Shown: positions 14,656-58,911, counted from the first letter of the stretch. The stretch: 64,000 nt of DNA from an uncultured bacterium (GCA_963848965.1 CAWKFG010000004.1:320001-384000), one strand, 5' to 3'. Numbers and translations are program-made. Notes: a model not told the origin generated them from the letters alone.

Positions 14656-15087
14656 CTAATCTTTTTTAGCTTTCTTATCTTTTTTGTACTCAATTGCAAG
14701 AAGCTTAGTCGCAATAGGAGAGCCACTTGGCGAATCTTCTGAACTTTCTTCTTCATCAGAAAATTCATACCTTACATTCTTTGATTTAGAATCTTTTTCT
14801 TGATCCTTTTTAACTGGCGCTGCCTGTTTCTGAGCAGTTGGTATTGGTTGTGAGGTAGATCCGGGACCCTTATAGGAAGCGGTAGGCATATCAGCTGCTT
14901 CATTTAATTCATTCCAAAACATACTCCATGCTTTGGCCCATGAAAAAGATGGGGCACGATTTTCAGAAGCTCTCATTGTAGCGACTTCACCTTGCACTCT
15001 TTGCATAGCCGCACAATTTTGACTTAATACAATGCTTACAACTAAGCAAATGAGAAAATGTAGAGAATAAGCGTTAATCTTTACCAT
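14656..15087 (-). CDS. Hypothetical exported low-complexity protein
   Basis: Signal peptide ending AA-MQ; acidic/Ser patch and basic C-terminus. Confidence 0.65.
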   Translation of the reverse strand: MVKINAYSLHFLICLVVSIVLSQNCAAMQRVQGEVATMRASENRAPSFSWAKAWSMFWNELNEAADMPTASYKGPGSTSQPIPTAQKQAAPVKKDQEKDSKSKNVRYEFSDEEESSEDSPSGSPIATKLLAIEYKKDKKAKKD

Positions 15088-15519
15088 GGCTTTACCTTCC
15101 CTTAATTTGGTAAACTTTGAACCATCCCTTAATTTTAAGGATAATCAAAAAATAATAAATTTACAAGTTTTAGCATAATTATTTTTCAAATATAAATTTA
15201 ATAAGCACATTGCTTACATAAAAAATGCAAAATATGCTCATTTGTGAAACCTGAGCTAGACTTATTTTTCAAGAAAAAGTAAGTATATAAAACCGTTTTT
15301 AAGTCTTTGTTAACATAAGCTTTTATATATCATATCCGCTTACAAATTTTCAACAAGATTTCTTACCTTATACATCCTAAGCATTAAAATTATTTACTTC
15401 AATCTTTTTTAGCTACTAAGAATAATACAATATATTAAAAATTGGAAAAGCAAATTTTTCTTGTTCAGCTTATATTGCCTTAATGATGTCGTAATACAAG
15501 ATCTCGAAAACCACATTAT

Positions 15520-15805
15520 GATGAAAACCGTACAAATCATGAATGTGGAGCTAAAAAATATCATCAATACATAGCAAAACATATGCATCAGTTCAATTAT
15601 AAAGATGCAATTGATCAAGATCTCCTGATAGGCTCTGGCGAGGTAAAAAGTTCACATCGGACTATGATATAAAAGCGACTTAAATTACCTGAAGCTTGGT
15701 AGCTTGAAAAAAATACAGAGAATATGTTGGCTATACGCACAGCAAAAGCCAATAATAATGGGGAAAGTTATTGGTTAATTAACCAATACTTTTAATACAC
15801 TCCAC
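15520..15805 (+). pseudogene. Degenerate ISKra4-like DDE transposase C-terminal fragment
   Basis: YIAKHMHQFNYKDAIDQDLLIGSGEVKSSHRTMI*KRLKLPEAW*LEKNTENMLAIR resembles the LPIGSG.IES.H...QKRLK..GAWW signature; two in-frame stops. Confidence 0.75.
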
Positions 15806-15876
15806 TACAGTCTTTAGCTTGTCTTTTTTTCTTGTTTTGATAGCTTGGGTACAACAATTGTGTATAGTGTGAGCTC

Positions 15877-17889
15877 ATGGGGTTGATGATGGTATCAAAA
15901 AAAGTTTTTTTTATTTATGGCATAGGATTCTTCTTTTTAATGAATGCTATGGAGAAGGAAAAAGAAGATAATTCAAGTGGCAATGTTGGTGCTCCTCTGA
16001 TACAAAGCCTGCATAAAGTGGTTCAAGCTAATAATAATCTTACGGCTTTAATAAACGCAGCTAGGTATGGGCATAAAGAGCTCGTACAAGAGTTGTTAGA
16101 TAAAGGAGCTGTGCTTGATATGCAAGATGATTCCGGTAACACTGCTTTAATGAGTGCTTCATATAATGGTCATAAAGAAGTTGTCATCTTATTGGTAAGT
16201 AAAGGAGCAAATTTTACCATACAAAATAATAATGGCTATACGGCTTTAAGGCTTGCTGCTCAATATGGGCACAAAGAAGTTGCACAAGTGCTTTTAGAAA
16301 AAGGAGCTAGGGATCATGCTGCTTTAGCAGATGCTGAGAAAAATCACCATAAAGATGTGGTATCTCTCTTGTTTAAGTATGCGCAAGACAAAACGAACGA
16401 TAATGCTAAAAATGTTATCTCTTCTACTCAAGAAACAGAACAGGGTAAGCAGGCCTCTCCATCTTCTTTACGAGCTTCTTCTTTACCTATATCTCCTGTC
16501 GTAGAAAGCCCGAGCAATAAAGCGCAAGAAATCAGGATCACTGGCGAACTTCTTAATGTTGATGCTCAAGATAGCGACGGGCAAACGGCTTTGATAAAAG
16601 CTGCCAATCAAGGAGATAAAGAAGGTGTACAAGAACTTTTGAAAAAAAGAGCTAATGTTAGTATTGTAGATAAAAAAGGGGATACTGCGCTTATATGGGC
16701 TGTACGCTCAGGTAATAAGCAAATAGTAGAACTTTTGCTAAAAAATGATGCTGAAGTTAATACTAAAAATGTAAGCGGCTGGACAGCACTACATTATGCT
16801 GCTCAGAGTGGCAATAAAGAGCTGGCAGAGTTATTGATAAGTCACGAGACTGATATTAATGCTCAAGATATAATCCAACAGACAGCCTTGCATGTAGCTG
16901 CACATAACGGGCATAAAAAGCTTGTAGAGTTATTAATAGCTCAAGGAGCAAATCTTTATTGTACTTGTAAATATGTAAAAAATCCTACAAATACTGACAT
17001 TACTGTTTTGATGTGCGCTGCACTTGCAGGCCATAAAAATGTTGTAGAATTTTTATTACATGCAGGAGCTTCAATAAACTCTCAAAGTAGTTTGGGGTGG
17101 ACAGCCTTGACTGGAGCGGCATATTGGGGACATATCGAAGTGGTTGAACTGTTATTAAGTAAAGGTGCGGCTCTTCAATCAAAGATGAGCGTTACTGCTT
17201 TTATGCAAGCAGCGCGTATGGGCTATAAGAAAGTGATAGAACTTTTCTTACAAGCGGGAATTTCGGTAAATGTTCGAGATAATGAGGGGCGGACAGCTTT
17301 AATGAATGCTACTACTGGAGGACATAAGGAAGTAGTAGAAAGTTTACTAAAAGCAGGAGCTCAAATAGATATTCAAGATAATAAAAAATATACAGCTTTA
17401 ATGAGCGCAGTATCTAACGGTCACAAAGAAATAGTAAAAATTTTATTGCAAGCAGGAGCACAAATAAATGCTCGAGAGGAAAATGGGTGGACATCATTAA
17501 TAATGGCAGCTTCACCTGGTAACACTACAGTAAAATATCATAAAGAAATAGTAGAGCTTTTACTAGAGGCTGGAGCAGACATCAATGCTCAAAGTTTATA
17601 TGGTTCTACAGCGTTACTTATTGCTGTAGATAAAAAGAATAAAGACTTAGTAGAACTATTATTAAGGAAGGGAGCAAATCCTAATCTTGTGGAGAAGAAT
17701 TATCTAGAGACTCCTTTAACAAGAGCCGTATATAATAAGCATAAAGAAATAATCGAACTTTTGTTGAAAGCTGGAGCTGATGGTAATGCTCAAAATAAAG
17801 AAGGAAAAACAGCTTTGTCGAAAGCGACACAAGAGGAGCGTAAAGAGATAGTAGAATTGTTATTAAGCAAAGGTGCACAAATGCTATGA
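15877..17889 (+). CDS. Ankyrin repeat protein, exported
   Basis: Many G.TAL..AA..GH.E.V.LLL..GA repeats; signal peptide ending NA-ME. Confidence 0.92.
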   Translation: MGLMMVSKKVFFIYGIGFFFLMNAMEKEKEDNSSGNVGAPLIQSLHKVVQANNNLTALINAARYGHKELVQELLDKGAVLDMQDDSGNTALMSASYNGHKEVVILLVSKGANFTIQNNNGYTALRLAAQYGHKEVAQVLLEKGARDHAALADAEKNHHKDVVSLLFKYAQDKTNDNAKNVISSTQETEQGKQASPSSLRASSLPISPVVESPSNKAQEIRITGELLNVDAQDSDGQTALIKAANQGDKEGVQELLKKRANVSIVDKKGDTALIWAVRSGNKQIVELLLKNDAEVNTKNVSGWTALHYAAQSGNKELAELLISHETDINAQDIIQQTALHVAAHNGHKKLVELLIAQGANLYCTCKYVKNPTNTDITVLMCAALAGHKNVVEFLLHAGASINSQSSLGWTALTGAAYWGHIEVVELLLSKGAALQSKMSVTAFMQAARMGYKKVIELFLQAGISVNVRDNEGRTALMNATTGGHKEVVESLLKAGAQIDIQDNKKYTALMSAVSNGHKEIVKILLQAGAQINAREENGWTSLIMAASPGNTTVKYHKEIVELLLEAGADINAQSLYGSTALLIAVDKKNKDLVELLLRKGANPNLVEKNYLETPLTRAVYNKHKEIIELLLKAGADGNAQNKEGKTALSKATQEERKEIVELLLSKGAQML

Positions 17890-17939
17890 GCAAGGGATTT
17901 GCGCTATTAGAATCATTTAAGATAGCACTTCAAATATAG

Positions 17940-18698
17940 TTATCGACAAGAACTTTCTAGTGCAAGAACAATATCGTTATCCTTAACACGAATTTTTAAT
18001 GCAACGTCAGGAAAATATTCCAGCACATCTTGTATATGATACCTTCTGCTTTGAAGGACTGCATTTTCATTATCTTCACTAAGAAAGCGCTGATCATGTA
18101 TAACCATAGTATTAGAAGAATCAAAAGTAAGATTTAACTTTTTAAGGAAAGCTTCACGAACACATCGTTGCTTAGAGCTTAAAAGATAATTTTGAGGAGC
18201 TAAAAAATCAGGAATTAACCCGTCTATTTTTTTTAAGACTTCTGGATCACCATGTATATAACTTTCCATCCACTCTAAAGCTCCTGGGGTACCCCAATAA
18301 AAAGCAGCATAAAAGAGAAGTTTAAGCCATTCTGCACTAGAAGAGGAAAATATTTTTGAGTATTTTTTAACAAATTCTTGTAACACTAATCCATTAAATT
18401 GTGCATCCCTTAATAAGGGAGAAAAGGATCTATGCATGCTCATACATGCTTTTATACTATCCCACGCGTTAAAGAAATCTTGAACATTTTCAGTAAGATA
18501 CTGAGTATTCTTTATTACTGAGTAAAGAATACTCTTTTTAATGTCGGCTGGTAACTCGTTCAAAGAACCTGAAGACACTACGGTAGACTTGTAATTATCG
18601 ATAATTACCATGTTACCTAAACTTTTTGGAGACTCCATAGCATTAAGGACAGTACAGAACAAAAAGCTACTTATTTGTATTATTCTTATACTATACAT
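17940..18698 (-). CDS. Exported protein with F-box-like N-terminal domain
   Basis: Signal peptide NA-ME; LNELPADIKKSIL; homologous to 18780..19673. Confidence 0.65.
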   Translation of the reverse strand: MYSIRIIQISSFLFCTVLNAMESPKSLGNMVIIDNYKSTVVSSGSLNELPADIKKSILYSVIKNTQYLTENVQDFFNAWDSIKACMSMHRSFSPLLRDAQFNGLVLQEFVKKYSKIFSSSSAEWLKLLFYAAFYWGTPGALEWMESYIHGDPEVLKKIDGLIPDFLAPQNYLLSSKQRCVREAFLKKLNLTFDSSNTMVIHDQRFLSEDNENAVLQSRRYHIQDVLEYFPDVALKIRVKDNDIVLALESSCR

Positions 18699-18779
18699 TG
18701 CTTCCTTGTTTTTCAAAGAATTTATTTACCCATATTTTAAAGTATACAAGGAAGCCGTATAAGCTGCAAGAACTCTTTA

Positions 18780-19673
18780 TCACATTTGGCCTGAAGGATA
18801 GTCTGTAATAACTTTTGTAACTCCTGGTCTGCCTACTATAGAAGGCTGCGTATAACCGGGACGCAATCTTATCCTTCCGCCACCAGGACCAAAGAAGTCT
18901 ACTTCTCGCCATTTGGTTAATTTGTCGATTTCTTCTTCTGAAAGTGTGTGTCTGCCACGGAACACTTTTATCTTTTCTTCAACAAGACCTTTAACTGTTT
19001 CTCCCTTTTTGTTTGTATATGCACCTACTAATCCAGGTTTATATTTTTCAGCTCCATTATATAATAAATAGAGTGCTAGATCAGGATTATCCTGTTTTAT
19101 AGCTACCATAAGAGGAGTATTACCCTCATCATCCTGAATATTAAGAGGGGCCCCGTTCTTTATTAAAAGAGGTATAAGAGTGCCATACGTATGTGATCCT
19201 GACCATGCAAGAATTGTAAAAAGAACTTCTTTATTCTTTGAAAGCTCTGGGTCAGATTCTAGCATATCTCTTAACCAATCAACCGCTCCCTTGGTGCCTA
19301 AAACAGTTGCCGCCTTAATTAATGACACTCTATCTATTGTAGAGAAAAACCGTCGTGCCAGCTCTTCAATCAAAGCTCTGTTTATAGATTCGTCGTTTAA
19401 GAAAGGTGCAAATACTTTGTTAAGAGACATAAAATTGCGTATATTCTGCGCTGCTTCTTGTATGTCTTTTCCTGATGTTAGAAATAAAAGAACCTCGCCC
19501 TTAAGCTCATCAGGTAAAGCCTCAAGAGGAGCTGGTAATGGCTGTCTATAGTGTTCTATAATTCTAAGCCAGTACGTCGGTGAAACTTTTATTTTTCCCA
19601 CTCCTTCTGGCCCTTCCATAGCACTTACACTACTTACAAGGCAGCATACAATTAGCCATAATTTACTATTCAT
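18780..19673 (-). CDS. Exported protein with F-box-like domain and ankyrin repeats
   Basis: Signal peptide SA-ME; LEALPDELKGEVL; GNTPLMVAI ankyrin repeat. Confidence 0.75.
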   Translation of the reverse strand: MNSKLWLIVCCLVSSVSAMEGPEGVGKIKVSPTYWLRIIEHYRQPLPAPLEALPDELKGEVLLFLTSGKDIQEAAQNIRNFMSLNKVFAPFLNDESINRALIEELARRFFSTIDRVSLIKAATVLGTKGAVDWLRDMLESDPELSKNKEVLFTILAWSGSHTYGTLIPLLIKNGAPLNIQDDEGNTPLMVAIKQDNPDLALYLLYNGAEKYKPGLVGAYTNKKGETVKGLVEEKIKVFRGRHTLSEEEIDKLTKWREVDFFGPGGGRIRLRPGYTQPSIVGRPGVTKVITDYPSGQM

Positions 19674-19904
19674 AATAACGTCCTTTTTATTTTTATATTC
19701 TTTTGCATTAACTATATAGTATTTTATTCAATTTTGCAATAGAATACATAGCTCTCTGTACCAGCTACTTTTTACTTTTCAACATTTTAGCTTCCTTCTT
19801 TTGATAAAAGAAATGAGTTAAGAGACTTGCCAACAAAGAAACCGTTAGTATATAGTGAAATGAGACTAATACCAGATGGCATAGTTCTTATAAGGGGGAC
19901 AATT

Positions 19905-20294: not shown

Positions 20295-21092
20295 CTATTT
20301 TTTTTGGCTTCTAGTGCCATACGTCCAATTAGATGGCTTATTTAATATCCTTCGAGCAAGTACAGGACTTGGTCTATTAAGAGAAAAAATTCCCCATACT
20401 GCCGCCATAAGGCCACCTTGTTGCGGTTGAGGAGGGTTTACTGCTGCTGGACTGGTTGTTTGCTCTTTACTTTGAGGAATAGAATTTGATGCAGGCGCTT
20501 GTTTGATTGGCCCTTGTTCTGCCTCATTATTTTGTTCACCGTTATTTACTCGAGGGGAAGCAACTGGTGATTGAGCCAATTTAATACGCTGCTTACAGAT
20601 AGAGCATGTAGGATGTTGAGGATTTGCAAGAATTTGGCGATTAGCACATATAGCACAGAAAAGATGGCCACAATTAAATTGTGTCATCTGCTCTTCAGAT
20701 CTAAAATCATCTTTACAAAGAGGACATTTTATCACTATCTCACTTCTACAGGTAGGACAGGTGCCTTTCTTTGCCTTCCACTCAAATATACACTTTACAC
20801 AGCAGTTATCATGCTTACATGCTAATTTAACATTACATGACATTTCACTATCACCAACTTTAACAGAATTTTCTTCATGACAAATAAGACAGTCAAAAAC
20901 TCCTAACCTTTTTGCCTCTTTACTATCTGCTTCAGGTCCTTTTAGCTTTTCTTCAAACGGATTCTGCAAAGGTAACTTTATACCTAAACGAACACCCTCT
21001 TTTACAAAATAAGGCTGTTCTTGTTGCATTGCAAAAACAGCCGATTGAATAAGCGAAAATATAAGAACTAAACGCACATAGCATAGGTTCAT
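20295..21092 (-). CDS. Exported protein with two RING fingers (putative E3 ligase)
   Basis: CLIC...CKH..C..C...CPTCR and CPLC...CGHLFC..C...CSICK; signal peptide FA-MQ. Confidence 0.85.
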   Translation of the reverse strand: MNLCYVRLVLIFSLIQSAVFAMQQEQPYFVKEGVRLGIKLPLQNPFEEKLKGPEADSKEAKRLGVFDCLICHEENSVKVGDSEMSCNVKLACKHDNCCVKCIFEWKAKKGTCPTCRSEIVIKCPLCKDDFRSEEQMTQFNCGHLFCAICANRQILANPQHPTCSICKQRIKLAQSPVASPRVNNGEQNNEAEQGPIKQAPASNSIPQSKEQTTSPAAVNPPQPQQGGLMAAVWGIFSLNRPSPVLARRILNKPSNWTYGTRSQKK

Positions 21093-22371: not shown

Positions 22372-23613
22372 CTAGAAATTAAGTTCTACCATTAATGATA
22401 CACTATGCGTTTTCGCCGATCGTTTACTCACTTTCCAATCTACAGGAATATCCCAATAAGCAGAAATAATAGGTCGCCACCATGCCCACTCACAATTTTT
22501 ATTAAAGTCATAAAAAGCACCAACCGTTACATACTCACTACCCCATGAAGAGCGAGCCCGTACTGGTTCTAAGTTTACAGGAACCGCTTTATCACGCCGC
22601 ATATCAGATAAAGTATCTTTTAGGTGAGCAACCATAGTATACTGCACCTTAAGACCAAACCCTTCCCGCAGCCCTTCAAGAGAGATATAAGGATTAAATA
22701 CAAATGTCCAGCCTGGATCAACATGCAGAGGCCCAACCACCGCTCCATAACGCGTTGGTTCGCAATCGACTGGTATCCGTTGCGTTAACGTCTTTGACAA
22801 TCGCTTAATTGCTCGGAACTGAAATCCAACAACCCAATCCTCCTTCAATTCTATCTCATTTTCAAGACCAAGATAAACTCCCCAATGCTTATTACCGCCA
22901 AGAGAAATAGACGCTGGATTATTAATGTTTATATCATCGGCTGTAGGCGCTATAAAGCCAAGCTTTAATCCAGAGTCTATACGCTTTACTTTACAGATAT
23001 ATTCTGCAAAAAAGCCAAGCCTAAAATAAACATCAAGGTCACCAAACATTGTCTTTCTAAAAAGCGGAGGAGTTACTCCAAGCTCACGATCCATTCTTTC
23101 ACGTAATGTAAAGAGAGCCTGCCTGCTACCTGCTGCATTTGTAGCATTTGTTGCATCTAAGCAAAACTCTTGTGCTGAATTAACATGTGCAAAAAGAAAT
23201 GACATTCCTGAAGAAAAATAGAAGCCACTTGGATGGCACCATCCAGGTAACAGCTCTAAGTAAAATGCTATTCCTTCAGCATCAAGATGCCCTTCTCTAC
23301 GCCATGGAATACTTGTTAACGCACGTAATCGTGAAGGAAAAAGATTCGGATGCCCGGTGGCAACAAGCGCTCTGCCAATTTGTACCTGATCATAGGTACC
23401 ATCAATGTTCGGAAGACTTGTTTCATCAAAGTCACCATGTGCTCGCTCTGCACGCATGAAAAAAGGCTGCACCCTAAAATTCAGATACGCCTGCGGCCTA
23501 TGAGTAAATGGCTTAAAATAGAGAGGAAGAAATCCTCTACTAGCGTCAAATGTCATACTATAAAGAGAAGAATTACCTGTGAGTAAAAGTAAAAAATACC
23601 AACGCTTTATCAT
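22372..23613 (-). CDS. Hypothetical outer-membrane beta-barrel-like protein
   Basis: Signal peptide, amphipathic beta pattern, C-terminal Phe (VELNF). Confidence 0.6.
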   Translation of the reverse strand: MIKRWYFLLLLTGNSSLYSMTFDASRGFLPLYFKPFTHRPQAYLNFRVQPFFMRAERAHGDFDETSLPNIDGTYDQVQIGRALVATGHPNLFPSRLRALTSIPWRREGHLDAEGIAFYLELLPGWCHPSGFYFSSGMSFLFAHVNSAQEFCLDATNATNAAGSRQALFTLRERMDRELGVTPPLFRKTMFGDLDVYFRLGFFAEYICKVKRIDSGLKLGFIAPTADDININNPASISLGGNKHWGVYLGLENEIELKEDWVVGFQFRAIKRLSKTLTQRIPVDCEPTRYGAVVGPLHVDPGWTFVFNPYISLEGLREGFGLKVQYTMVAHLKDTLSDMRRDKAVPVNLEPVRARSSWGSEYVTVGAFYDFNKNCEWAWWRPIISAYWDIPVDWKVSKRSAKTHSVSLMVELNF

Positions 23614-28891: not shown

Positions 28892-29862
28892 TGTACTACT
28901 ACACGAAAGAGAGCAATAATTTCAGCAAATATTTGTGCTCTTTTGGTCCATTCCTGAGCATCTGCTAGCTTATTTTCTTGGCAATATTTTTGAGCTTCTC
29001 GAGTAGTATATGCATACGAACGTTGAGCTTGTTGTAGAGCTGAAATTTGTCCTATTTTTACTATTAAAGGGTTTGCTCCAAATGCCAACAGAAGCTTGAT
29101 CGTTTCAAGGTGTTCAGGCCTAATAAACCAATTTTGTGCTATAACATAAAGCGCCGTGTCCCCTGTACCATTTAAAGCGTTAGGATTAGCTCCATGCTCA
29201 AGCAATAATTTAGTCATTTCTACACGTCCATAACTAGCAGCCCACGTTAAAGGTAAATAAGCAAAAGGTTGCTCCTTTGGGTCAGGAAAAACATGCATAT
29301 CTGCTCCATTGGCAAGACAGAGCTTTACCAGATCTATGTTTCCTAAATATGCCGCAATTCCTAAAAGATCATCACCCTTTTTAGTTTTAATACGTACAAG
29401 CTCTCTTATAAGCGCAGGTCTTTGAGCTAAGTCTTGAGCTATTTCATTAATAGCTGGCCATTGTTTAAGATAGTTGATAACATTCAATGCTCCTAAAGTT
29501 CCTATAGTATGTGCCATATCCTCTGTATCACTATCAAAGCGACGGGCCAAAGCATTTATCAAGGATGCATTAAGCACAAGCTTATCAGAAATCAAACCAG
29601 TAGTTATAGTATCATCATGCGCCTGTATATAAGCTTTAATGGTATCTATAACGGAACTTTTTTCATCCTTTGTAAGTCCAGCCCATCGCAATAGCGGTGT
29701 CAAAGAAGAACCTGTATGTTTTTGCTGCGCCAGCAAGAGAGCCACCTCTTGTTTAAGCTCAAAAGGTAAGATATGCAGAAAATTAGCCTCAGACTTTTCG
29801 CTCATAGCTATTACTGATAGAGGTATAAACAAAAGGGTTAGAAGAAGGCACACGAATCTCAT
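28888..29862 (-). CDS. Exported protein with F-box-like domain and ankyrin repeats
   Basis: Signal peptide IA-MS; LHILPFELKQEV; about three ankyrin repeats. Confidence 0.8.
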   Translation of the reverse strand: MRFVCLLLTLLFIPLSVIAMSEKSEANFLHILPFELKQEVALLLAQQKHTGSSLTPLLRWAGLTKDEKSSVIDTIKAYIQAHDDTITTGLISDKLVLNASLINALARRFDSDTEDMAHTIGTLGALNVINYLKQWPAINEIAQDLAQRPALIRELVRIKTKKGDDLLGIAAYLGNIDLVKLCLANGADMHVFPDPKEQPFAYLPLTWAASYGRVEMTKLLLEHGANPNALNGTGDTALYVIAQNWFIRPEHLETIKLLLAFGANPLIVKIGQISALQQAQRSYAYTTREAQKYCQENKLADAQEWTKRAQIFAEIIALFRVVVH

Positions 29863-30030: not shown

Positions 30031-31416
30031 ATGATGAAAAAATTTATACTCTTTGCTTTTACCCTCTCTTGTTCCTTTCTCTTTGCTATGTCACAAGAAC
30101 TACCAACTGTTCGCTCTATTCCTCGTTTAGACATGCTTGCAGCATATTACTTTGCAGATAAAATTAATGAACAATGTCTTACCTCCAATAAAACTTCATT
30201 AGAAGAAAAGATAAAAGATATCACTAACACCTTTCTAAATTCCCTTATTTTACCTCTTGCATGTATTAATCTTATTAAGCATGCCTTTTGTGCAAAATAT
30301 GGTGGTGGTGAAAAAGTACGCGCTTGCCATCTTGTAAGGGGTCACACAGGAGTCATAACTCATGTAGCAACTTCGCAAGATCTCATTGCTTCAGCAGCAA
30401 AACCACGTCAAAATATACTTTCTTGGAATCTTGATAACTCAATCCGTATATGGAATAGCGCAGGTACCTATTTACGTACTCTACAAGGACCTCAAGGAGG
30501 TACACTATCTCTTGCCTTCCTTGCCAATGGCAATCTTATTGCAGGCGGAATACGCGTTCTCCTGAATCGAGAAGAATTTAATAGATTTACTTCTATGCAA
30601 GAGAACGAACGAGCAAAAAACTATCCTTCTTTACTGCTGTTTGATGGTACTACAGGACAACTTTTAAAATCATGTGCAACTGAAAACCCTATTTACTCTT
30701 TAGCAGTACTTGAAAATGGTATTATTGCTGCTGGAAGTGTAGGAGGGCCACTCTATCTTTTTGATAGTACACTCAAACACATAAAGACTCTTAACGCCCA
30801 TCGAGACACAGTATTCAATCTAGCTACCTTGCCGCATAATCACCTTGCTTCTGCATCAGATGATGCTACAATACGCATTTGGAATATGAATAACGAGAAA
30901 GAATCATTGGTAAAAGAGATCAGAACAGATGGAGTAATCATGGGGCTTGATGCTTTGCCAAATGGGCATCTTGTAATACTATCACAATGGTTATCAGTTG
31001 AAATATGGGACTGGCAAAAGCCTTCAGATCACTGTATAGCAACTTTTGGTGTCACCGATATACCACGTACAACTTATTGGCCATTTGCAAGTAAAGTTTT
31101 CTTTCCAAACTGTGTGCGCGTGCTGCCAAATAGCTCTATAGCTCTTGGGTCAAAAAATACTTCCTTGTGTATACTAAGGTTTGATCAAACTAAAAATAGC
31201 ATCGAGTTTCTTCATAAGTATGAAGGACAAGGAGCACAGACAACAACTATTGCAGGACTTAGCAACGGCTTTATTGTCACCGGTTCTGAAGACAGCATAG
31301 TACGTATCTGGCGTCCAAAAACTTTCGAAGAAGAACTCTATACTTTTCTTATTAAACTGCAAGCACAAAAAGAACCTAGACTTACCAAATGCCTACGCCT
31401 TTTCAAGCTTGTATAA
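30031..31416 (+). CDS. Exported WD40-repeat protein
   Basis: GH...D.SIRIWN, AH...LASASDDATIRIWN, TGSEDSIVRIW; signal peptide FA-MS. Confidence 0.88.
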   Translation: MMKKFILFAFTLSCSFLFAMSQELPTVRSIPRLDMLAAYYFADKINEQCLTSNKTSLEEKIKDITNTFLNSLILPLACINLIKHAFCAKYGGGEKVRACHLVRGHTGVITHVATSQDLIASAAKPRQNILSWNLDNSIRIWNSAGTYLRTLQGPQGGTLSLAFLANGNLIAGGIRVLLNREEFNRFTSMQENERAKNYPSLLLFDGTTGQLLKSCATENPIYSLAVLENGIIAAGSVGGPLYLFDSTLKHIKTLNAHRDTVFNLATLPHNHLASASDDATIRIWNMNNEKESLVKEIRTDGVIMGLDALPNGHLVILSQWLSVEIWDWQKPSDHCIATFGVTDIPRTTYWPFASKVFFPNCVRVLPNSSIALGSKNTSLCILRFDQTKNSIEFLHKYEGQGAQTTTIAGLSNGFIVTGSEDSIVRIWRPKTFEEELYTFLIKLQAQKEPRLTKCLRLFKLV

Positions 31417-42227: not shown

Positions 42228-44420
42228 TCATTTATGATGTGTATCCATATTCTCCAGAGCATGTAATAACTTTATGTTATTCAATTGAGTAGCATATTCT
42301 TTTGCTTTATTTTTTAGTTCCATTCTTTCAGATGATTGTTCTTGAAGGTTATTAATAACCATATAAATAATAGAAGCTTTACCACTTAAAAACGCATAGT
42401 CCAGAAATGTATCTCTATGCAATTTCATAAAAGGTATGGGAGTATGAAGAACTGATTCATCACCTGCTAAAAAACGGTGTAGAATGTGAGTATGGCCAAA
42501 TTTACATGCCCACGACAAAATTGTCATACTCCTTGCACTCTTTTTAGCTCCATAGTTATCATTATATAACTCTTTTGCAAGTTCTGGATTACAGTACTCT
42601 ACTGTACATGCAGTAGATTCTCTTTCAAGAGAATGTTTTTCTGCATGGGCCATTGCTTGAAAATGTTGTGTGGTATACATCTCAGGATCAGCAAGATAAT
42701 CAAAAAGATCTGGTGAGTATTTTTCACCCATCTGAAAAAAATGAAGAAGATATTTTTTTGTACTATGTTTAATACGACGATTGTTTCCATAAGGTATATT
42801 ATCGATTACTATAGTCGGTTCGTAAGTACTTTCATTTAAACATTTAAGCATTTCACACCCCTGGCCAAATCCAAGAGCGTAAGTAAGCGCTGTTTCACCG
42901 TCGTTATTTCTTACTCCAGGATCAGCACCTCTTTCTAGAAGTAAAGCTACTATCTCGTTATATCCTTCTGCTGTTGCATACATAAGCGCAGTAAAACCCC
43001 TCCAATTGCATACATTAACAGCAGTACCTACTTGTAGTAATGCCTCTACCAACTTATAATTGCCCATAAGCGCAGCAAGCATTAAAGGTGTATTACCAAG
43101 ACTATCTTGAACATGAGACTCTCGTATATAATTTTCTATACTACATAAGTTCTTATCTCTGATAATTGCTCGCAGAAAAGAGGCATATCCTTCAGTATTT
43201 TTTGCGAGCGTCTGTGCTAAAGTACATACCATTTTCCAATAAGCAACTCTTAAGGGCGAGAGGTAAGGAATAATTTTTACAGGAGCCGCATCTTTAAAAA
43301 ACCACATAAGATCATTACGTCCTTTCACGCGAGCAGCTGTTTCAAGCGTTTCTAAAGATATACCCAGCGTTTTACATGCATCAATAAGCTTACAACGGGA
43401 ATCTTCACGGGTTACTGCAAAAAGCTCTATAATCTCTTTGTTTGTAATTTTATCACTACGCTCACCTAAGGCTATAAGCCGCAAAAAAAGCTTATAGTTC
43501 TTTATGAGCAAAGCCATTTTAAGAAAGTCTTTATCTTGAAACTTTTGTAGAGAGGTAAGCAATAGTTCTATGAGTGAGTTTGGCTTAACATAAGAAAAAC
43601 AGGTTTTTTTATACTTATCTTCGCTATCAAATTGAGCACCTCTCTTAATGAGTGTATATGCTCCCTCAAAGCTATTTTCTTGCACTGCTCTCATAAACGC
43701 TGTACAACCGTCTGCATCTTGAAGATCTCTAGATGCACCATTATCAAGCAGAAGATTTATTACTTTTATGTGTCCATTAGATGCAGCTTCATGTAAAGCA
43801 GTACGCCCTTGGTTATTCTTCTTATTAACCTCTACTTCTCTTTTTATAAGAAAAGAGAGCATTTCTTTATCTCCTTGGCGTGCAGCATTAATAAGAGGGG
43901 TATCTCCCGCATTATCACTGCTTTCAATAGAAAGCTTCTCTTTTAAAAAACACTCTAATACTGCAATCGAACCTCCTTTTGCTGCAGCAAGCACAGCATT
44001 CTCTCCATATATTGTAGTACAGTGGATATCTGCTCCTGCTTTTACAAGTCGCTCTATAGTAGGTAAATAACCTTTACGAGCAGCAAAAATTAAAGCACTT
44101 GTGTGTTCGCTATCTACAGCATTCACGTCTGCTGAGTGCTTAATAAGAAGCTCTATCAGACTTTCATTGCGACCTTGAGCTGCTTCATGTAAAGCAGTAC
44201 GCAATTGCTTATTATGAGCATTAACATTAGCTCCTTGAAGTAAGTATACTCTAGCAAGTTCTAGTCTGCCATCTCTGACTGCACGAATAAGAGCTGTATC
44301 TCCATTTTCATCACTTGCAAATTCTATTATTTTCCTTGCTCTTTTTTGTACCTTTTGCATACCTTGTACTTCTTGCACAACGCCCATGCAGCACAAAAAC
44401 ATATAAAACATTAAAAGCAT
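42228..44420 (-). CDS. Ankyrin repeat protein, exported
   Basis: Two ankyrin blocks; signal peptide QG-MQ; C-terminus related to 48272..49396. Confidence 0.9.
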   Translation of the reverse strand: MLLMFYMFLCCMGVVQEVQGMQKVQKRARKIIEFASDENGDTALIRAVRDGRLELARVYLLQGANVNAHNKQLRTALHEAAQGRNESLIELLIKHSADVNAVDSEHTSALIFAARKGYLPTIERLVKAGADIHCTTIYGENAVLAAAKGGSIAVLECFLKEKLSIESSDNAGDTPLINAARQGDKEMLSFLIKREVEVNKKNNQGRTALHEAASNGHIKVINLLLDNGASRDLQDADGCTAFMRAVQENSFEGAYTLIKRGAQFDSEDKYKKTCFSYVKPNSLIELLLTSLQKFQDKDFLKMALLIKNYKLFLRLIALGERSDKITNKEIIELFAVTREDSRCKLIDACKTLGISLETLETAARVKGRNDLMWFFKDAAPVKIIPYLSPLRVAYWKMVCTLAQTLAKNTEGYASFLRAIIRDKNLCSIENYIRESHVQDSLGNTPLMLAALMGNYKLVEALLQVGTAVNVCNWRGFTALMYATAEGYNEIVALLLERGADPGVRNNDGETALTYALGFGQGCEMLKCLNESTYEPTIVIDNIPYGNNRRIKHSTKKYLLHFFQMGEKYSPDLFDYLADPEMYTTQHFQAMAHAEKHSLERESTACTVEYCNPELAKELYNDNYGAKKSARSMTILSWACKFGHTHILHRFLAGDESVLHTPIPFMKLHRDTFLDYAFLSGKASIIYMVINNLQEQSSERMELKNKAKEYATQLNNIKLLHALENMDTHHK

Positions 44421-44613: not shown

Positions 44614-45441
44614 ATGATAAGATCTTTTTTCCTCTTTTTCTTCTTCACTTTAACACCTTTTCTTTATACTATGAAAAAAGCACTCAATGAATGGCCAGAA
44701 AGTTTTTACAGTCATATTAGTCCAGGGCTCGTGTACGATTTTAAAACCAAAGAGAAACTGGAGCTTTATAAAAAGAATGCTACTGATCCTCATTGCACAA
44801 AAAGCACAGCTGATACTTCTTCCCTCTCTAGTAAAAGCAGAATAGTATATGATTGGCTTTATACACTCGAATGGTCAAAAAAATATCTTCTTTCAAAACC
44901 ATTTCAAACATGGACTGTAGAGGACCTCAATAACATCAATAAATGCTTAACTCGCTTAACCTCAGAAGAACCAGGGATATATCAAACTGAAGCACGCGAA
45001 TTTACAAAAGAGAAGCTTTCCGCGACTGAAGAGTTTGGTCTCCAGCTTTTAAGAACAGCAAGCACTTTAAACACTAATTTTAACCAATTACCGTTTAGAT
45101 ATATTCTTTATTTTTATGCACATCCAGGTCAGCTATCACACTTTCTTCAATCAGCTCTTAAATCATACCAAACTTCTTTATTCCAATCCAAAGACACTGT
45201 GCAAGAAATCTTAGAAGCTACAGCAGAATTTTATCTTAGTACTGTATTTTTGCGCCCTTGGAAAAATGCCTATGTACAGACCGCTTATCTTATTATAAAC
45301 ATCGTCTTAGCACAGCATAACATTAATTTTATTATGTTTAAAGATAATGACAGGTTAAACAAGGCCCTTTCAACATGTTTTGAAGCACAAAACTCAATTG
45401 CTATGCAAGAACTCTTTATCTCTACTCTCAAGCAAAGTTGA
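44614..45441 (+). CDS. Exported Fic-fold protein with degenerate active site
   Basis: L..IN..L...PG.Y, then A.FY...FLRPWKNAYVQTAYLIIN..L aligning with HPFxDGNGRxxRL. Confidence 0.6.
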   Translation: MIRSFFLFFFFTLTPFLYTMKKALNEWPESFYSHISPGLVYDFKTKEKLELYKKNATDPHCTKSTADTSSLSSKSRIVYDWLYTLEWSKKYLLSKPFQTWTVEDLNNINKCLTRLTSEEPGIYQTEAREFTKEKLSATEEFGLQLLRTASTLNTNFNQLPFRYILYFYAHPGQLSHFLQSALKSYQTSLFQSKDTVQEILEATAEFYLSTVFLRPWKNAYVQTAYLIINIVLAQHNINFIMFKDNDRLNKALSTCFEAQNSIAMQELFISTLKQS

Positions 45442-48271: not shown

Positions 48272-49396
48272 ATGAAATATACTTTTCTACCTCTTGCTTT
48301 ATGTATAGCAATTGTTACAACATCTCATACATATGGTATGGAAGAGGTAACTATGGGATTAGATATAGTACTAGATATATGCGGTCCTCGATTATCTTTG
48401 TTACCTTCCTTAACAGAATTAGCCAAAGAGCTTTCCCAAGGCAATAGTAATGCAATAAACCAATTTATAGAACGTAGTTATGATCAACAATCTGCAAAAA
48501 ATGATGTCTTATTTTTAGCTTCTTACATGAATGATACACAAGTAGCCTCGACTGCTCTTCAGTATGGAGCTGACATTAATGCTCGTAAACATTTAGAAGA
48601 AACACCATTAATGATCGCTACTCGTTGTGGCTACAAAAAGATGATTCAATACCTTTTAAATAACGAAGCTACCATAGATCTTAAAGATCAGTATGGACAT
48701 ACTGCTCTCTTTTTTGCTGCGGCAGAAGGTCATGCTTCAACCGTCTCTTTATTACTTGATAGAACTCTTAATTTGAATGTAGAAGATTGCAAAAGAGCTC
48801 TTTGTGCTGCTGCAATCAATGGTCATTTATCAGTAATTTCTCTTCTTATTAGTAAAACAGCACTACGACGCCTAAAAGATATATGTACTGGAGATACTTT
48901 ACATAACGTCGATGTTAAAGAGCGTTGTACTAAAGAGTTAAAATATACTATCATTAAACGTCTACTACAATTAAGTTTAGATCCGGCTGTACAATGCTAT
49001 CTTGCAAATCCTGTACAATACGTAGTAACAAAATGCCAACCTCATAACGAGTCATCGCTTTATATAGGGCAAGTACCTCTTCTTATGATAGCATGCATGT
49101 TCGGCCATACAAACGTTGTAGAGATATTAAAAAGTTACTCTATCTCATCAGGGTATCTTTCTTGGCACGAAGGCTATTATAGCTACATGCTCCGTACTTC
49201 TTTAGATGCATTAAATTATGCTTTTGCATGCGGCAACGACGATACTGCAGCTGCTTGCATTGAAGCATTTGGAGAGCACATTAGCTGGCTTAGCTGGAAA
49301 GGTGAACTTGATAGGCTTCTACAAGGAGCTCAACAACGTAAGAATCAAAAACTTATTAGTGCTCTCTTACATAAACAACATCGAGCGGCTTCGTAA
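48272..49396 (+). CDS. Ankyrin repeat protein, exported
   Basis: ETPLMIA, GHTALFFAA repeats; signal peptide YG-ME. Confidence 0.85.
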   Translation: MKYTFLPLALCIAIVTTSHTYGMEEVTMGLDIVLDICGPRLSLLPSLTELAKELSQGNSNAINQFIERSYDQQSAKNDVLFLASYMNDTQVASTALQYGADINARKHLEETPLMIATRCGYKKMIQYLLNNEATIDLKDQYGHTALFFAAAEGHASTVSLLLDRTLNLNVEDCKRALCAAAINGHLSVISLLISKTALRRLKDICTGDTLHNVDVKERCTKELKYTIIKRLLQLSLDPAVQCYLANPVQYVVTKCQPHNESSLYIGQVPLLMIACMFGHTNVVEILKSYSISSGYLSWHEGYYSYMLRTSLDALNYAFACGNDDTAAACIEAFGEHISWLSWKGELDRLLQGAQQRKNQKLISALLHKQHRAAS

Positions 49397-49458: not shown

Positions 49459-50613
49459 TTAAACTTTTGTGGTACACTGCTGACCAGTCTTTTTTGTTTC
49501 TGCTGCAATATTCATTGCTCTTAAAAGAGCCGCTTCACTAATAAGAGACATTTTAAATAAAGCATTCTCTTTATAACCTGAGCGCCTATAGTTCCACTCA
49601 AAGATATATCTAGAGCCTATTACAGAAATAAGGTAGGAAAGATCTTGTGAGGAAGAAGAAAACGTCCCATGAGGCTTTTTGAGCAGCACGTACTTACGAA
49701 CAAGCTGCTCTCCTTGATACATCATAACCCGGCATGCAGCTGTATAGTTATAAAGTAGTGTATTTGAAAAGGCCGCAGAGTTACGTATATCATGCATTGA
49801 AAAGGTCATAGGTTTATGGAGATAGGGAATACCAGGAACTGCACTATGATAGTTCTTAGAATTGCCCTCTTCACAAAGTTTTATAAACGCTTCATTTCCT
49901 TGTAACATATCACATCTATTATAAATGCTTTGTAATTCTAAATATGCCTTAGCTGCTTGCAACGCATCTCTTGTATAAAGAACAGCTGCTTTCAGTGAAG
50001 AAATAACCTCATCCCAGTTTACAGGCTCTATCGTCTCTTCTAATTTACATAAGAAAGACTTTAATTCTTTCATAAATTGTGACCAGTTTCCTTCATCTAT
50101 AAGATTTTTATGATATAGATTTATCCGATACTTCTCATCGCGCTTCTTTATGAATGCACTTTTTAAAGACGCCTTCACCGTAGGCATACTTGAAAAACCT
50201 TCACAAATGCGCTCAACTCGTGTTTTTGTCAAACATGTTTCTAGCCACTTATGCACATCTTTTGAAGAGCTTTCTTGTCTGTTTAAGAACAGTTCAGCTA
50301 CGCTTTCTAAAACTGCCTCAGTAGGTTCTGCACAGGACAGTAGAGCATTGAGAATCGCGCTATCCAGGGCAACATAACACATAAGCTCTTTACGAAGCTC
50401 AAAAGGCAATGTACATAAATAATTGTTTTTATTATTTATTGGCTGGGAAGTCCTATAGGAAGTGATATACTCATAAAGAGTTGTAAATGATAACCATCCC
50501 GATTTGCTTTCAATTTTACTCTCAGTATGTGGCAATTCCATACAACTACTTTTTATACAAGACAATAAAAGTAGCGCTAAACACAAAACTTCTTTAAGGG
50601 ACTTTCTCTTCAT
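49459..50613 (-). CDS. Exported protein with F-box-like motif
   Basis: Signal peptide SC-ME; YLCTLPFELRKELM. Confidence 0.65.
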   Translation of the reverse strand: MKRKSLKEVLCLALLLLSCIKSSCMELPHTESKIESKSGWLSFTTLYEYITSYRTSQPINNKNNYLCTLPFELRKELMCYVALDSAILNALLSCAEPTEAVLESVAELFLNRQESSSKDVHKWLETCLTKTRVERICEGFSSMPTVKASLKSAFIKKRDEKYRINLYHKNLIDEGNWSQFMKELKSFLCKLEETIEPVNWDEVISSLKAAVLYTRDALQAAKAYLELQSIYNRCDMLQGNEAFIKLCEEGNSKNYHSAVPGIPYLHKPMTFSMHDIRNSAAFSNTLLYNYTAACRVMMYQGEQLVRKYVLLKKPHGTFSSSSQDLSYLISVIGSRYIFEWNYRRSGYKENALFKMSLISEAALLRAMNIAAETKKTGQQCTTKV

Positions 50614-51692: not shown

Positions 51693-52025
51693 TTACTGAT
51701 ATAAAGTTAAAGCTTTTGTGCACTTATTTCTACCAAGCACCGTAGCAAAACTTTTTGCATGCAGAATATTTACCATAGATGCCTTTGCCTCTAGTATCTC
51801 ATACACAGTCTCTTCATCATCTTCTAATATAGCCGCGAGCAAGTGCTGTGTATAATAATTTTGACCTTGAAAGTAGTGTTTTAAAAAACGCATATTCTTT
51901 TGCTTTATAGCAGCACTGAGAGCTCTCGTAAAAGCTTCGGTTGAGATAGGATCTGGCATCTGCATACTATAGAGAGTATAAGTACCTATAACATGCATAA
52001 AGAGTATAAAAAATAACTTTTTCAT
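51693..52025 (-). CDS. Small exported protein, degenerate ankyrin-like
   Basis: Signal peptide YS-MQ; L.AAI...D...V..IL. Confidence 0.55.
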   Translation of the reverse strand: MKKLFFILFMHVIGTYTLYSMQMPDPISTEAFTRALSAAIKQKNMRFLKHYFQGQNYYTQHLLAAILEDDEETVYEILEAKASMVNILHAKSFATVLGRNKCTKALTLYQ

Positions 52026-52201: not shown

Positions 52202-53275
52202 ATGAAAAAAATAATAATTATAGTTCTTTTAGTAGCATTAGTACATAAAGCACATAGTATGGAAGCACCGACTTTACCTTCTCACTGTAATCCTCAGCCA
52301 CATGTGCTTAAAAGACATGCCCATCTTATTACTGGAGCAGAAGGCTATTTAGTTTATTCAGGAGCCTTGAGCCCTGACGGCAGATATGCCTTAACAGGAT
52401 CTGCAGATCAGACAGCAATAATTTGGGACATAACCAATTTACCTTCTATTAAATCCTATAGATTGCGAAGTTCTAAAGGTTCAGTCCTTTCAGTAGCATT
52501 CAGCCCTGATAATAACTATATTATAACAGGGTTTCATAATGGGACTATACGACTATGGGATATAAGTGACTTAGATACTATTAAAGACAACGATTACTTG
52601 GAGCACAGACTCAAATATTATAATTTTGATGTACCGGAAGGCGGTGTTTACTCCGTAGCAGTAAGTCCTAACGGAAAATATATCTTAGCAGGATCTACCA
52701 GTTCTATTGTTATACTGTGGGATATACGTAATTTAAACAATAGTAAGTTCTATAGTCTCAAAGGCCATTACAATTCTGTCCTTGCAGTAGCATTCAGCCA
52801 TGACGGAAAGAAAGCTATAACCGGTTCTCTTGATAGAACTGCACAGCTATGGGATATTAGTAATCCTGCTAATGCTAAACTTCTTGCCGTTTTACCTCAT
52901 AAAGATGTGGTAACCTCAGTAGCATTTAGTCCTGATGACAAGCAAGTTTTGACAGGGTCTCGAGATAAGATTGCACGCCTTTGGAATATACAAGACCTTA
53001 ACAATATCACATCTTATCCTCTTGAAGGCCACAAACATACAATAAGTTCTGTAACATTTAGTCCTCGCGGAACTTACGCTCTAACAGGATCTTATGATGG
53101 TACTGTAAAAATATGGAAAATAAGCGCCTTATCTGCTCTGGAACCATATTCTTTGGAAGTACCTGATAGAAGACCAATTCATTCAATCGCATTAAGCTCT
53201 AGTGGGCACTATATCCTAGTAGGGTTGGGAAGCGGTAGAGCAGTGCTCTGGGATTTACAATGTAATCTTCAGTAG
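52202..53275 (+). CDS. Exported WD40-repeat protein (about 7 blades)
   Basis: Repeated V.SVAFSPD...LTGS.D.TA.LWD; signal peptide HS-ME. Confidence 0.92.
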   Translation: MKKIIIIVLLVALVHKAHSMEAPTLPSHCNPQPHVLKRHAHLITGAEGYLVYSGALSPDGRYALTGSADQTAIIWDITNLPSIKSYRLRSSKGSVLSVAFSPDNNYIITGFHNGTIRLWDISDLDTIKDNDYLEHRLKYYNFDVPEGGVYSVAVSPNGKYILAGSTSSIVILWDIRNLNNSKFYSLKGHYNSVLAVAFSHDGKKAITGSLDRTAQLWDISNPANAKLLAVLPHKDVVTSVAFSPDDKQVLTGSRDKIARLWNIQDLNNITSYPLEGHKHTISSVTFSPRGTYALTGSYDGTVKIWKISALSALEPYSLEVPDRRPIHSIALSSSGHYILVGLGSGRAVLWDLQCNLQ

Positions 53276-53284
53276 AAGAGCTGA

Positions 53285-57634: not shown

Positions 57635-57641
57635 CGTATGT

Positions 57642-57676
57642 TATGTCGTTCGCTGAAACCTTGTGCGAACGACATA
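57642..57676 (+). terminator. Terminator hairpin after trxA
   Basis: TATGTCGTTCGC ... GCGAACGACATA followed by a T-rich tract. Confidence 0.75.
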
Positions 57677-57840
57677 GATTTCTTTCTTACTATTTTTCTT
57701 ACAAGTAAATTCCTCAGGTATCCTTACCCAATAATATCTTTTGTAATTTTTTGAAAAAAATATATACTAAGTACTGCTATTCAAAACAAAGAAATATTGT
57801 GATAGATATCCTTCTTCTGTAAATGAACAGAGATTTCATT

Positions 57841-58911
57841 ATGAAATTTTATTTTTTAATCAGTATGCTTTTTTGTTTAGGGAGTCAATCTCTTTTTCCA
57901 ATGGAAAAATCTACAGAGCTCACTCCTTTGCTAAGCAAGAAAAATGCCCAAGTTACTTATAATAGTCTATCAACAACACTGCCAGAAGATACTAAAAATC
58001 TACTTGCTTATCTTATCCTTCAACTTCCTGTTGATGTTGTAGCAGAGCTTGCTGACTATCTTCCAGGTAACAACTATTTTCTTAATTACTTTCTCTCACG
58101 TCGTATCAAGCCTACTACCAAAACAGCACAAAAGATACTGAGAGCGTTTATGACGCACCTTATACACAAAACTCATCCAAACAATCCAAAACGCATACCT
58201 CTCCCTTTTGCATTAGAAAAAATAAACTTATTTTTTAAAACAACTAAATTGAAACATGAAGACGATATTCTTTTTCATTATTGGGATTCAATACGAGATA
58301 TTATACAAGCAATTAAAACATATAATGTAAATGAAATTCACAATGCACTTGAAGAACACCTTAAAAAATATATGGAAAACGTATCGCAGCCTCTACAAGT
58401 TTTTTCTAACCTACAAGAAGAAATATCTTTCGATCGATTCATACTCACTTGTTGTAGTGCCGTACTCAAAGAAAGATTTAGCAGCGCCCACGTAATAAGC
58501 GAAGGCACAAACTGCATTTATGCAGACTGCTGGTATGACAATGTTATAAAAGAATATTGGTGTATTAAAGCTGCACGAAATCCACATACACGTTGTGCCA
58601 CCTATCAGGTCTCTTTTCTTCCTTGCCTCTGTGGTATACCAGGACTTATCTGTGTACTAATAGCAGTACTATCTAACAATCACACAGCCGCTGTAGCTGG
58701 AGGTTTTTTGCTAGTGTGTACTCTTATAAGTTGCTGCAGCTCTTTTTGTGCACTAATCAAAGAATGCAATAAGGATGTTTTCGAGTTCGGTAACATACAA
58801 GCAGAATACAAAAATGATGTCCAAGCTCTTTTTAAAGTGCTTATAGATGCTCATCATTTTTTACAAGAGCATCTTGAAAAGCATACTGCCTCTGCCCAAG
58901 AAATAGTATAA
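57841..58911 (+). CDS. Exported protein with F-box-like motif and Cys-rich C-terminal TM hairpin
   Basis: Signal peptide FP-ME; LQLPVDVVAELADYL; two Cys-rich TM helices. Confidence 0.6.
   Translation: MKFYFLISMLFCLGSQSLFPMEKSTELTPLLSKKNAQVTYNSLSTTLPEDTKNLLAYLILQLPVDVVAELADYLPGNNYFLNYFLSRRIKPTTKTAQKILRAFMTHLIHKTHPNNPKRIPLPFALEKINLFFKTTKLKHEDDILFHYWDSIRDIIQAIKTYNVNEIHNALEEHLKKYMENVSQPLQVFSNLQEEISFDRFILTCCSAVLKERFSSAHVISEGTNCIYADCWYDNVIKEYWCIKAARNPHTRCATYQVSFLPCLCGIPGLICVLIAVLSNNHTAAVAGGFLLVCTLISCCSSFCALIKECNKDVFEFGNIQAEYKNDVQALFKVLIDAHHFLQEHLEKHTASAQEIV

Follow-up and report, generated by a model that had tools for sequence, protein, structure and literature searches.

A methionine directly after predicted signal peptides in candidate host-directed proteins of a Dependentiae bacterium

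Leader-methionine junctions in the window

This report concerns a recurrent protein N-terminus, a predicted export leader followed directly by methionine, in a 64,000-nucleotide stretch of DNA (the window, G000:C4:320001-384000, the whole stretch that was analysed) and in the genome from which it comes. The source organism is a Dependentiae/Babeliales bacterium and a protist parasite; homologues of its proteins carry the database names 'Candidatus Dependentiae' and 'Candidatus Babeliales'. Its genome (G000) comprises 1.73 Mb in 5 contigs with 37% GC and is 88.7% complete, and all 60 of the genomes sampled from the phylum fall within one order. A sequence-only reading of the window had listed sixteen N-termini of this kind. 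When translations, coordinates, codons and flanking sequences were re-derived, all sixteen were found in place, the junction methionine being encoded by ATG in 16/16 and following a leader of 18-27 residues. Residues are numbered below from the predicted cut, so that the methionine stands at +1.

Ten of the sixteen proteins belong to recognizable classes. In the following, coordinates cover the leader plus the methionine codon, and a slash marks the predicted cut. Pfam ankyrin repeats were found in the genes at 15877, 18780, 28888, 38127, 42228 and 48239. The corresponding junctions are NA/ME in a protein of 670 residues (15877..15951, plus strand, Met codon 15949-15951), SA/ME in one of 297 residues (19617..19673, minus, leader of 18 residues), IA/MS in one of 324 residues (29803..29862, minus, 19 residues), FS/ME in an ankyrin-MYND protein of 1134 residues (41466..41531, minus, 21 residues from a GTG start), QG/MQ in one of 730 residues (44358..44420, minus, 20 residues) and YG/ME (48272..48340, plus, 22 residues from the ATG at 48272). 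Pfam also identified a RING finger in the gene at 20295 (FA/MQ, 21027..21092, minus, 21 residues), WD40 repeats at 30031 (FA/MS, 30031..30090, plus, 19 residues) and 52202 (HS/ME, 52202..52261, plus, 19 residues), and MYND domains at 38127 and 23974. The tenth protein is an outer-membrane beta-barrel (YS/MT, 23554..23613, minus, 19 residues). As the sequence-only reading had remarked, translation shows the methionine at +1 of this barrel gene, which begins its coordinates at 22372, and not in the MYND protein at 23974.

The remaining six are orphans: AA/MQ in 143 residues with no Pfam family (15004..15087, minus, leader of 27 residues, Met codon 15004-15006), NA/ME in 258 residues (18636..18716, minus, Met codon 18636-18638; the longest start is TTG, with an ATG 6 codons further in), YT/MK in 275 residues (44614..44673, plus, 19 residues), SC/ME in 384 residues (50539..50613, minus, 24 residues), YS/MQ in 110 residues (51963..52025, minus, 20 residues) and FP/ME in 362 residues (57841..57903, plus, 20 residues from the ATG at 57841), where proline at -1 is atypical for signal peptidase I. 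The protein at 44614 had been labelled Fic; it matched neither Fic nor any other Pfam family at E <= 0.001, and we dropped the label. By eye, five of the sixteen (17940-18716, 18780-19673, 28888-29862, 49459-50613 and 57823-58911) also share a motif, 'LP.E[LI]K..', 25-50 residues past the methionine; it looks F-box-like, and no Pfam F-box match was obtained at E <= 0.001.

Extent of the pattern in the genome

Genes were predicted with a simple caller of our own (codon-usage score, greedy choice of open reading frames), which gave 1505-1511 genes on 87% of the DNA. A strict scan then required a methionine at residue 16-32 with 10 uncharged residues ahead of it, together with a hydrophobic core and, past the methionine, a hydrophilic stretch; the scan was blind to the -1/-3 cleavage rule. 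It returned 220 genes, and 234 in a re-run, out of about 1,500; the re-run added 44 genes with a methionine within a few residues of the predicted site. Genome-wide counts are lower bounds, as the strict scan recovered only 9-10 of the 16 window cases, and its false positives amount to about 3 of 32 non-ankyrin matches (ribosomal protein L10, an HflX-type GTPase and an MlaD anchor). The earlier figure of about sixteen proteins therefore holds for the window and is a large underestimate for the genome.

The same excess is seen by position. Among 855 open reading frames with a hydrophobic N-terminus, methionine occupies residues 19 to 23 in 51, 71, 61, 62 and 35 cases, compared with about 20 per position outside this interval; the sum is 280, and about 70 would be expected from the level at residues 30-59. 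The other 650 open reading frames show no methionine peak at residues 19-23, and methionine makes up 2.07% of the residues of the proteome. A weight matrix of positions -12 to -1 placed methionine at +1 in 190 of 387 predicted sites; it had been trained on methionine-type leaders, so that the leader set is not independent, and position +1 lies outside the matrix. The pattern is far beyond chance. At least 15-18% of the genes, and with them most of the host-targeting repertoire, would have one residue in common where the exported protein starts.

Leader type and start of translation

The residues around the predicted cut are those of Sec leaders processed by signal peptidase I, as the sequence-only reading had supposed. 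Position -1 is A, G, S, C or T in 202 of the 220 genes (A 67, G 58, S 51, C 14, T 12), position -3 is L, S, I, T, V, A or C in 207 (72, 30, 26, 25, 23, 20 and 11, respectively), and position -2 is mostly Y, F, L or Q; neither -1 nor -3 was used in selection. Lysine or arginine occurs within residues 2-8 in 203 of 234 leaders. The median leader has 20 residues; its hydrophobic core was a selection criterion and hence provides no independent test. Other leader types were considered and rejected: a lipobox with cysteine at +1, as in leaders for signal peptidase II, was found in 0/234, a loose RR pattern of the twin-arginine (Tat) type in only 3/234, and a type IV prepilin-like G/M junction with glutamate at +5 in only 4/234. 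Unlike in prepilins, the hydrophobic stretch lies before the cut, and the mean hydropathy of residues +2 to +21 is -1.05.

One signal peptidase I gene was found in the genome (G000 C1:323677-324552), matching TIGR02227 above the cut-off and bearing an insertion. Across the phylum the enzyme comes in two forms, with a contiguous TIGR02227 match or with a match split by an insertion, and some genomes have tandem copies. Proteins of the methionine aminopeptidase family are encoded by two M24 genes, neither of which has a leader.

The junction methionine could also be a translation start with an untranslated leader before it, an alternative that had been raised for the window. Shine-Dalgarno motifs, counted 4-18 bases upstream, precede 159 of 220 leader starts (72%) and 3 of 220 junction ATGs (1.4%), compared with 243 of 1502 other internal ATGs in the same genes (16%) and 201 of 443 starts of leaderless genes. 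In the window the figures are 9/16 leader starts and 0/16 junction ATGs. Two public-database gene calls were compared: the record for an ADP-ribosylglycohydrolase begins with the same first leader residues, and that for the 384-residue orphan (49459-50613, minus strand) has the same leader start, with 100% identity over 100% of the length. Taken together, the Shine-Dalgarno pattern and the matching gene calls make the internal start unlikely, and judged from these signals the leader start is the true start. After cleavage the mature proteins would begin with Met-Glu, Met-Gln or Met-Lys.

Residues after the methionine

The residue following the methionine in the 220 genes is E in 106, Q in 34, K in 25, Y in 9, N in 8, A in 7, S in 6, D in 5 and L in 5, so that Glu, Gln or Lys accounts for 165; the commonest openings are MEK (38), MEP (21), MEQ (16) and MKR (14). 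At the true starts of 667 leaderless genes, the second position is taken by K in 106, S in 52, I in 51, A in 49, L in 48, N in 45 and E in 44. Since the two profiles differ, the junction is not simply an ordinary N-terminus. A residue of the NatB type (E, Q, N or D) follows in 153 of 220, and one small enough to permit removal of the methionine (A, S, T, G or V) in 18 of 220, compared with at least 167 of 667 leaderless genes.

Where the mature part opens with an acidic or amide residue, 87 junctions are capped by methionine and 33 were scored as uncapped; 6 of these 33 are ankyrin proteins, and all 6 look mis-sited, with a methionine a few residues on. Before E, Q, D or N, methionine stands at 87 junctions, compared with Ile at 10, Leu at 16, Val at 10, Thr at 7, Lys at 8 and Arg at 2, many of the latter being mis-sited methionine cases.

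Proteins with and without the methionine

BLAST groups the mature parts of the 220 genes into 93 clusters, of which the largest has 97 members and 83 are singletons, which bears out the earlier description of the carriers as mutually unrelated. Ankyrin proteins form the largest class. Of the 146 identified with phmmer, 123 show a leader followed by methionine, 97 of these caught by the scans and a further 26 recognized by eye; about 13 lack a leader altogether, and in about 10 the leader is not followed by methionine. Among leader-bearing ankyrin proteins the methionine is therefore present in 123 of about 133. The 69 members sampled from the window plus 400 kb included 33 ankyrin and 4 WD40 proteins. 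Among 32 non-ankyrin members, 22 had no Pfam family, and the others included a C2H2 finger, an ADP-ribosylglycohydrolase and a metallophosphatase.

Recognizable envelope proteins had been said to lack the methionine. We assembled 18 of them (BamA, 3 secretins, 2 TolC-like, 3 DegP-like, a small trypsin-like protease, S41, S49, SurA-like, PrsA-like, OmpA-like, Cache and SBP proteins, and the barrel at 22372), and the statement stood: only 1-2 of the 18 have methionine at +1, clearly in the barrel and doubtfully in one DegP paralogue, so that it is not equally common there. In the window, the SurA-like, PrsA-like, Cache, S49 and BamA proteins all have leaders without it. Envelope proteins often open with Q, K, Y, I, H or W, and ankyrin proteins almost never do. 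The +1-Met rule is class-specific. Outside the window, at G000 C4:764526-774999, lie three tandem genes with secretin domains (1142, 815 and 789 residues); two have predicted leaders without a following methionine, and the third was left unclassified by the scan.

A sample of 32 leader proteins lacking the methionine consisted of 31 of the non-Met class and one predicted lipoprotein. Two of these were WD40 proteins and one an ankyrin protein; hydrolases, an AAA ATPase, an adenylate kinase and many orphans were also among them. The AAA ATPase (L089:13205-15436, minus strand, which is G000 C1:93205-95436) and the adenylate kinase (L089:15567-16217, minus strand, G000 C1:95567-96217) each have a predicted export leader, which suggests that these ATP-using enzymes act outside the bacterial cytoplasm.

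The barrel gene at 22372-23613 deserves separate mention. It has 112 database homologues, in whose alignment the leader is hypervariable; at +1, where 106 sequences have a residue, 96 have methionine, followed by a conserved V/T-F/Y-D-N-R motif. The AlphaFold model (mean predicted local distance difference test score 91.4) best matches FapF (E 4.7e-13) and a COG4313 channel, then FadL and TodX. The methionine of the barrel is kept in G061, G022 and G019, genomes without the effector rule; in its place G029 has Ala and G062 has Thr. We read the methionine of the barrel as part of the conserved N-terminal segment of a channel family, separate from the effector rule.

Conservation within families

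In an alignment of 69 unrelated members the methionine is the sole nearly invariant column besides the start. Judged by eye, it is kept while leaders and linkers differ in 15/15 leader-bearing members of a C2H2 family, 11/14 of a WD40 family and 6/6 of another. When methionine-type proteins were compared by BLAST with the sampled relatives, the ankyrin matches were out of register and provided no usable test on orthologues. A word-based search of 5.8 billion proteins found no relative of the 384-residue orphan (49459-50613) at E <= 1e-5.

The leaders themselves are mutually unrelated: at least 8 of 16 residues are alike in only 47 of 27,261 pairs, 30 of which are paralogues, and a leader 'cassette' was accordingly rejected. 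The idea that the pattern is a scar of signal peptides grafted onto acquired genes is thereby weakened as a neutral explanation and may still account for the origin of the pattern. Three genes (G000 C4:754675, C4:751597 and C2:3110) have alike leaders and first residues, with no BLAST match between the rest of their mature parts; they could be cases of rare leader grafting or truncated paralogues. One paralogue in a family of C2H2-finger effectors (G000 C1:123842-124075 with the 60 bases upstream) has its leader one base out of frame, and the open reading frame now begins at the junction methionine; either decay of the leader or a sequencing error in a homopolymer would account for this.

Distribution within the phylum

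We examined 200 kb from each of ten other genomes of the phylum and, as a control, 200 kb from E. coli K-12; related genomes are not independent of each other. Counts of methionine at residues 19-23, observed and expected, were 29 and 7.5 in G002, 20 and 7.0 in G010, 22 and 5.8 in G003, and 21 and 10.3 in G018 (all family f1); 27 and 10.7 in G027 (f10); 29 and 10.7 in G034 (f14); 33 and 12.2 in G061 (f5); 16 and 9.5 in G062 (f11); 9 and 7.7 in G029 (f12); and 16 and 8.8 in G019 (f2). In E. coli 2 were observed and 6.0 expected. By eye, a leader followed by methionine is present in 8/9 ankyrin proteins of G002, 9-10/17 of G010, 19/26 of G003, 3/4 of G034, 5/13 of G062 and 0/12 of G061, and in G029 the methionine follows 0/28 well-formed predicted leaders. 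In G061 the ankyrin leaders are followed in 9/11 by S, T or A and then usually by Q or E (by eye), and a small -1 residue is present in only 8/15 of its strict-scan matches; the positional excess in this genome disfavours a flat 'absent', despite the 0/12 ankyrin count. Families f1, f10 and f14 show the rule clearly and f11 shows it in part; in f5, f12 and f2 it is weak or absent. This uneven distribution offers natural contrasts for finding the cause of the rule.

A generic predictor that takes the first site fitting the -3/-1 rule was too noisy, calling early sites in which +1 was Leu, Ile or Phe, and its fractions were not used; even with it, methionine was the top +1 residue in G000, G003, G018 and G027 and joint top in G034. 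A link between the form of signal peptidase I and the rule was sought and none was found: among rule-bearing genomes G002 has the insertion type and G003, G010 and G018 the contiguous one, and the rule-poor G061 and G029 are contiguous as well.

Other features of the window

On the minus strand at 12347-13279 lies a 310-residue open reading frame, next to a helix-turn-helix protein at 13523-13981. Its Cas12f1-like TNB domain (PF07282, E 2.3e-22) points to a transposon nuclease of the TnpB type. No public sequencing runs were listed for window positions 14600-21200, and no RNA dataset was listed.

Possible explanations

What could hold a single residue in place across so many unrelated proteins? 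NatB acts on Met-Glu, Met-Gln, Met-Asn and Met-Asp N-termini, which retain their methionine, and the specificity of methionine aminopeptidase and the residue classes of the Arg/N-degron system are the basis for a reading in terms of stability. The best explanation in our view, to which we give a probability of about 0.4, is that a methionine-capped N-terminus keeps Sec cargo stable in the host cytosol. The leaders, as Sec signal peptides whose translation begins at the upstream start, would be cut by the single signal peptidase I directly before the methionine, and selection would maintain a lineage-specific '+1-Met rule' for host-acting ankyrin, WD40, RING, MYND, C2H2 and orphan proteins. Standing before an acidic or amide residue, the methionine cap would create a NatB-type N-terminus in the host cytosol, one that would be neither trimmed by host methionine aminopeptidase nor read as destabilizing by the host N-degron machinery, and envelope residents would be free to open with Gln, Lys, Tyr or Ile. 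On this reading the proteins would reach the host cytosol, keep their methionine and perhaps be acetylated there. The stability idea is silent on why methionine is used and not Ala or Ser, and for this we invoke history and a mutational trap. In origin the methionine was probably a start codon that was inherited, or a founder trait. Its retention may be due to the fact that a host degron would result from most single-base changes to ATG (Ile, Leu, Lys, Arg), and that the harmless ones (Thr, Val) would have to raise GC in an AT-rich genome.

Several observations weigh against this explanation. Cleavage sites throughout are predictions from a home-made rule, and come neither from SignalP nor from experiment. 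The AAA ATPase, the adenylate kinase and the two WD40 proteins without the methionine would be expected to work in the host, and the predicted +1 residue is Leu in a few ankyrin and WD40 proteins. The closest relative of the methionine-type ADP-ribosylglycohydrolase (76% identity) has Ile at +1, and further leader-bearing homologues among those listed are without the methionine, which means that the constraint is not absolute. The patchy distribution among families suits inheritance as well as function. NatB normally acts on nascent chains. Finally, the purpose could be met equally well by A, S, T or G at +1; G061 uses such residues after its leaders (S, T and A are likewise non-destabilizing), and the choice of methionine is left unexplained.

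The split between classes, 123 of about 133 ankyrin proteins as opposed to 1-2 of 18 envelope proteins, would also be expected if Met-[Glu/Gln/Lys]-[Lys/Pro/Gln/Arg] were a tag for a second sorting step, read in the periplasm and leading to exit by a secretin/type II route or by vesicles. The Met-Glu/Gln/Lys N-terminus would then be a linear address, a new post-Sec code that parts host-bound effectors from periplasmic residents and takes them through the outer membrane, perhaps through a host membrane too. A short preferred motif (MEK, MEP, MEQ and MKR as counted above), the three tandem secretin genes and the precedent of N-terminal post-cleavage sorting codes in lipoproteins all speak for such a tag. 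The type II signals so far known are conformational and not linear, and this counts against it, as do the exported hydrolases without the methionine and the change from Met to Ile in an ADP-ribosylglycohydrolase orthologue. In the accessible part of a report on another member of the phylum, type II was the only secretion system detected (PMC4378268), which is in favour of a tag; against it, G061 and G029 do without the rule, and G061 has ankyrin leaders with methionine after 0/12. No candidate reader was found, and the form of the signal peptidase does not track the rule. On balance we consider a sorting tag, including passage across the outer or a host membrane, doubtful.

The methionine may, on the other hand, have no function of its own, being either an old start codon from before a 5' leader was gained or a founder trait spread by duplication. 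It is after all the start codon, the C2H2-finger paralogue with the frameshifted leader (C1:123842) opens exactly at it, the family-wise distribution suits inheritance, and expanded families account for many members, with 97 in the largest cluster. Such an account is difficult to reconcile with 93 BLAST-unrelated clusters and with leaders too dissimilar for a general cassette (47/27,261 pairs). Glutamate follows the methionine in 106/220 but true starts in 44/667; the methionine persists though ATG to ATA or ATT is an easy change at 37% GC; and 87 methionine-capped junctions stand against 36 with Ile, Leu or Val, many of them mis-sited. In the ADP-ribosylglycohydrolase the methionine lies about 45 residues upstream of the start of cytosolic homologues, not at it. 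A purely historical residue is in our judgement unlikely. Far more improbable is a second start at the internal ATG giving a leaderless cytoplasmic copy beside the exported protein: an in-frame ATG does stand exactly at the junction, and leaderless mRNAs can be translated without a Shine-Dalgarno sequence, but the motif precedes only 3/220 junction ATGs, below the 16% of other internal ATGs, and host-directed proteins have no obvious use inside the bacterium. We are similarly sceptical, and strongly so, of a preference of this lineage's signal peptidase I for methionine at P1' that would affect all newly evolved substrates. About half of the predicted type I leaders end before methionine, and the genome has a single signal peptidase gene, with an insertion; however, envelope proteins are cut by the same enzyme without a methionine, and rule-bearing genomes have either form of it (insertion in G002, contiguous in G003, G010 and G018).

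Comparison with known systems

In lipoproteins, a few N-terminal residues decide the compartment, as in the +2 rule and the surface export signal of Bacteroidetes. If the sorting tag were correct, the present N-termini would resemble these codes in that a few residues at a new N-terminus are read; they differ in that lipoprotein codes accompany a lipidated cysteine and signal peptidase II, whereas here a lipobox is found in 0/234 and the motif has no known reader. The likeness to NatB substrates lies in the NatB-class Met-Glu/Gln/Asn/Asp start of 153 of 220 members, and the difference in that these N-termini would be made by a bacterial peptidase after export, not at the host ribosome. Should the methionine set stability or routing in the host, it would provide a simple sequence mark for effectors in Dependentiae genomes.

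Closest in organism are the ankyrin proteins already reported from Dependentiae, which come from the same phylum and the same protein classes. In the portions of the two reports available to us, signal peptides were predicted for 79/126 and 78% of them, and export by Sec plus type II was proposed (PMC4378268; PMC6561590). The same portions, supplementary files aside, do not contain the word 'methionine' or discuss the residue after the cleavage site. Our literature search, which did not extend to the supplementary tables of these two genome papers, found no description of a +1-Met rule. The rule is real, large and class-specific, and apparently undescribed.

The nearest parallel in kind is the Q-rule of Bacteroidetes, a phylum-level bias for Gln at +1 of signal-peptidase-I substrates, as set out in those parts of the sources that we could consult (PMC5837995; PMC10653852); the corresponding part of PMC5837995 contains no occurrence of 'methionine', 'TM6' or 'Dependentiae'. 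In our genome about 16 proteins have Gln at +1, and the lone ankyrin protein among them looks mis-sited, with a methionine two residues later. No match to the glutaminyl cyclase families PF05096 or PF04389 was found in the genome, which at 88.7% completeness leaves their absence unproven. As far as the Q-rule is covered in those parts, both are lineage biases for one +1 residue that sets the mature N-terminus of exported proteins; unlike the Q-rule, the one described here concerns Met, applies to host-directed cargo only, spares envelope proteins and occurs in some families of the phylum only. If the methionine sets stability or routing in the host, the rule would join that of Bacteroidetes as a second case in which a lineage tunes the residue that opens its exported proteins.

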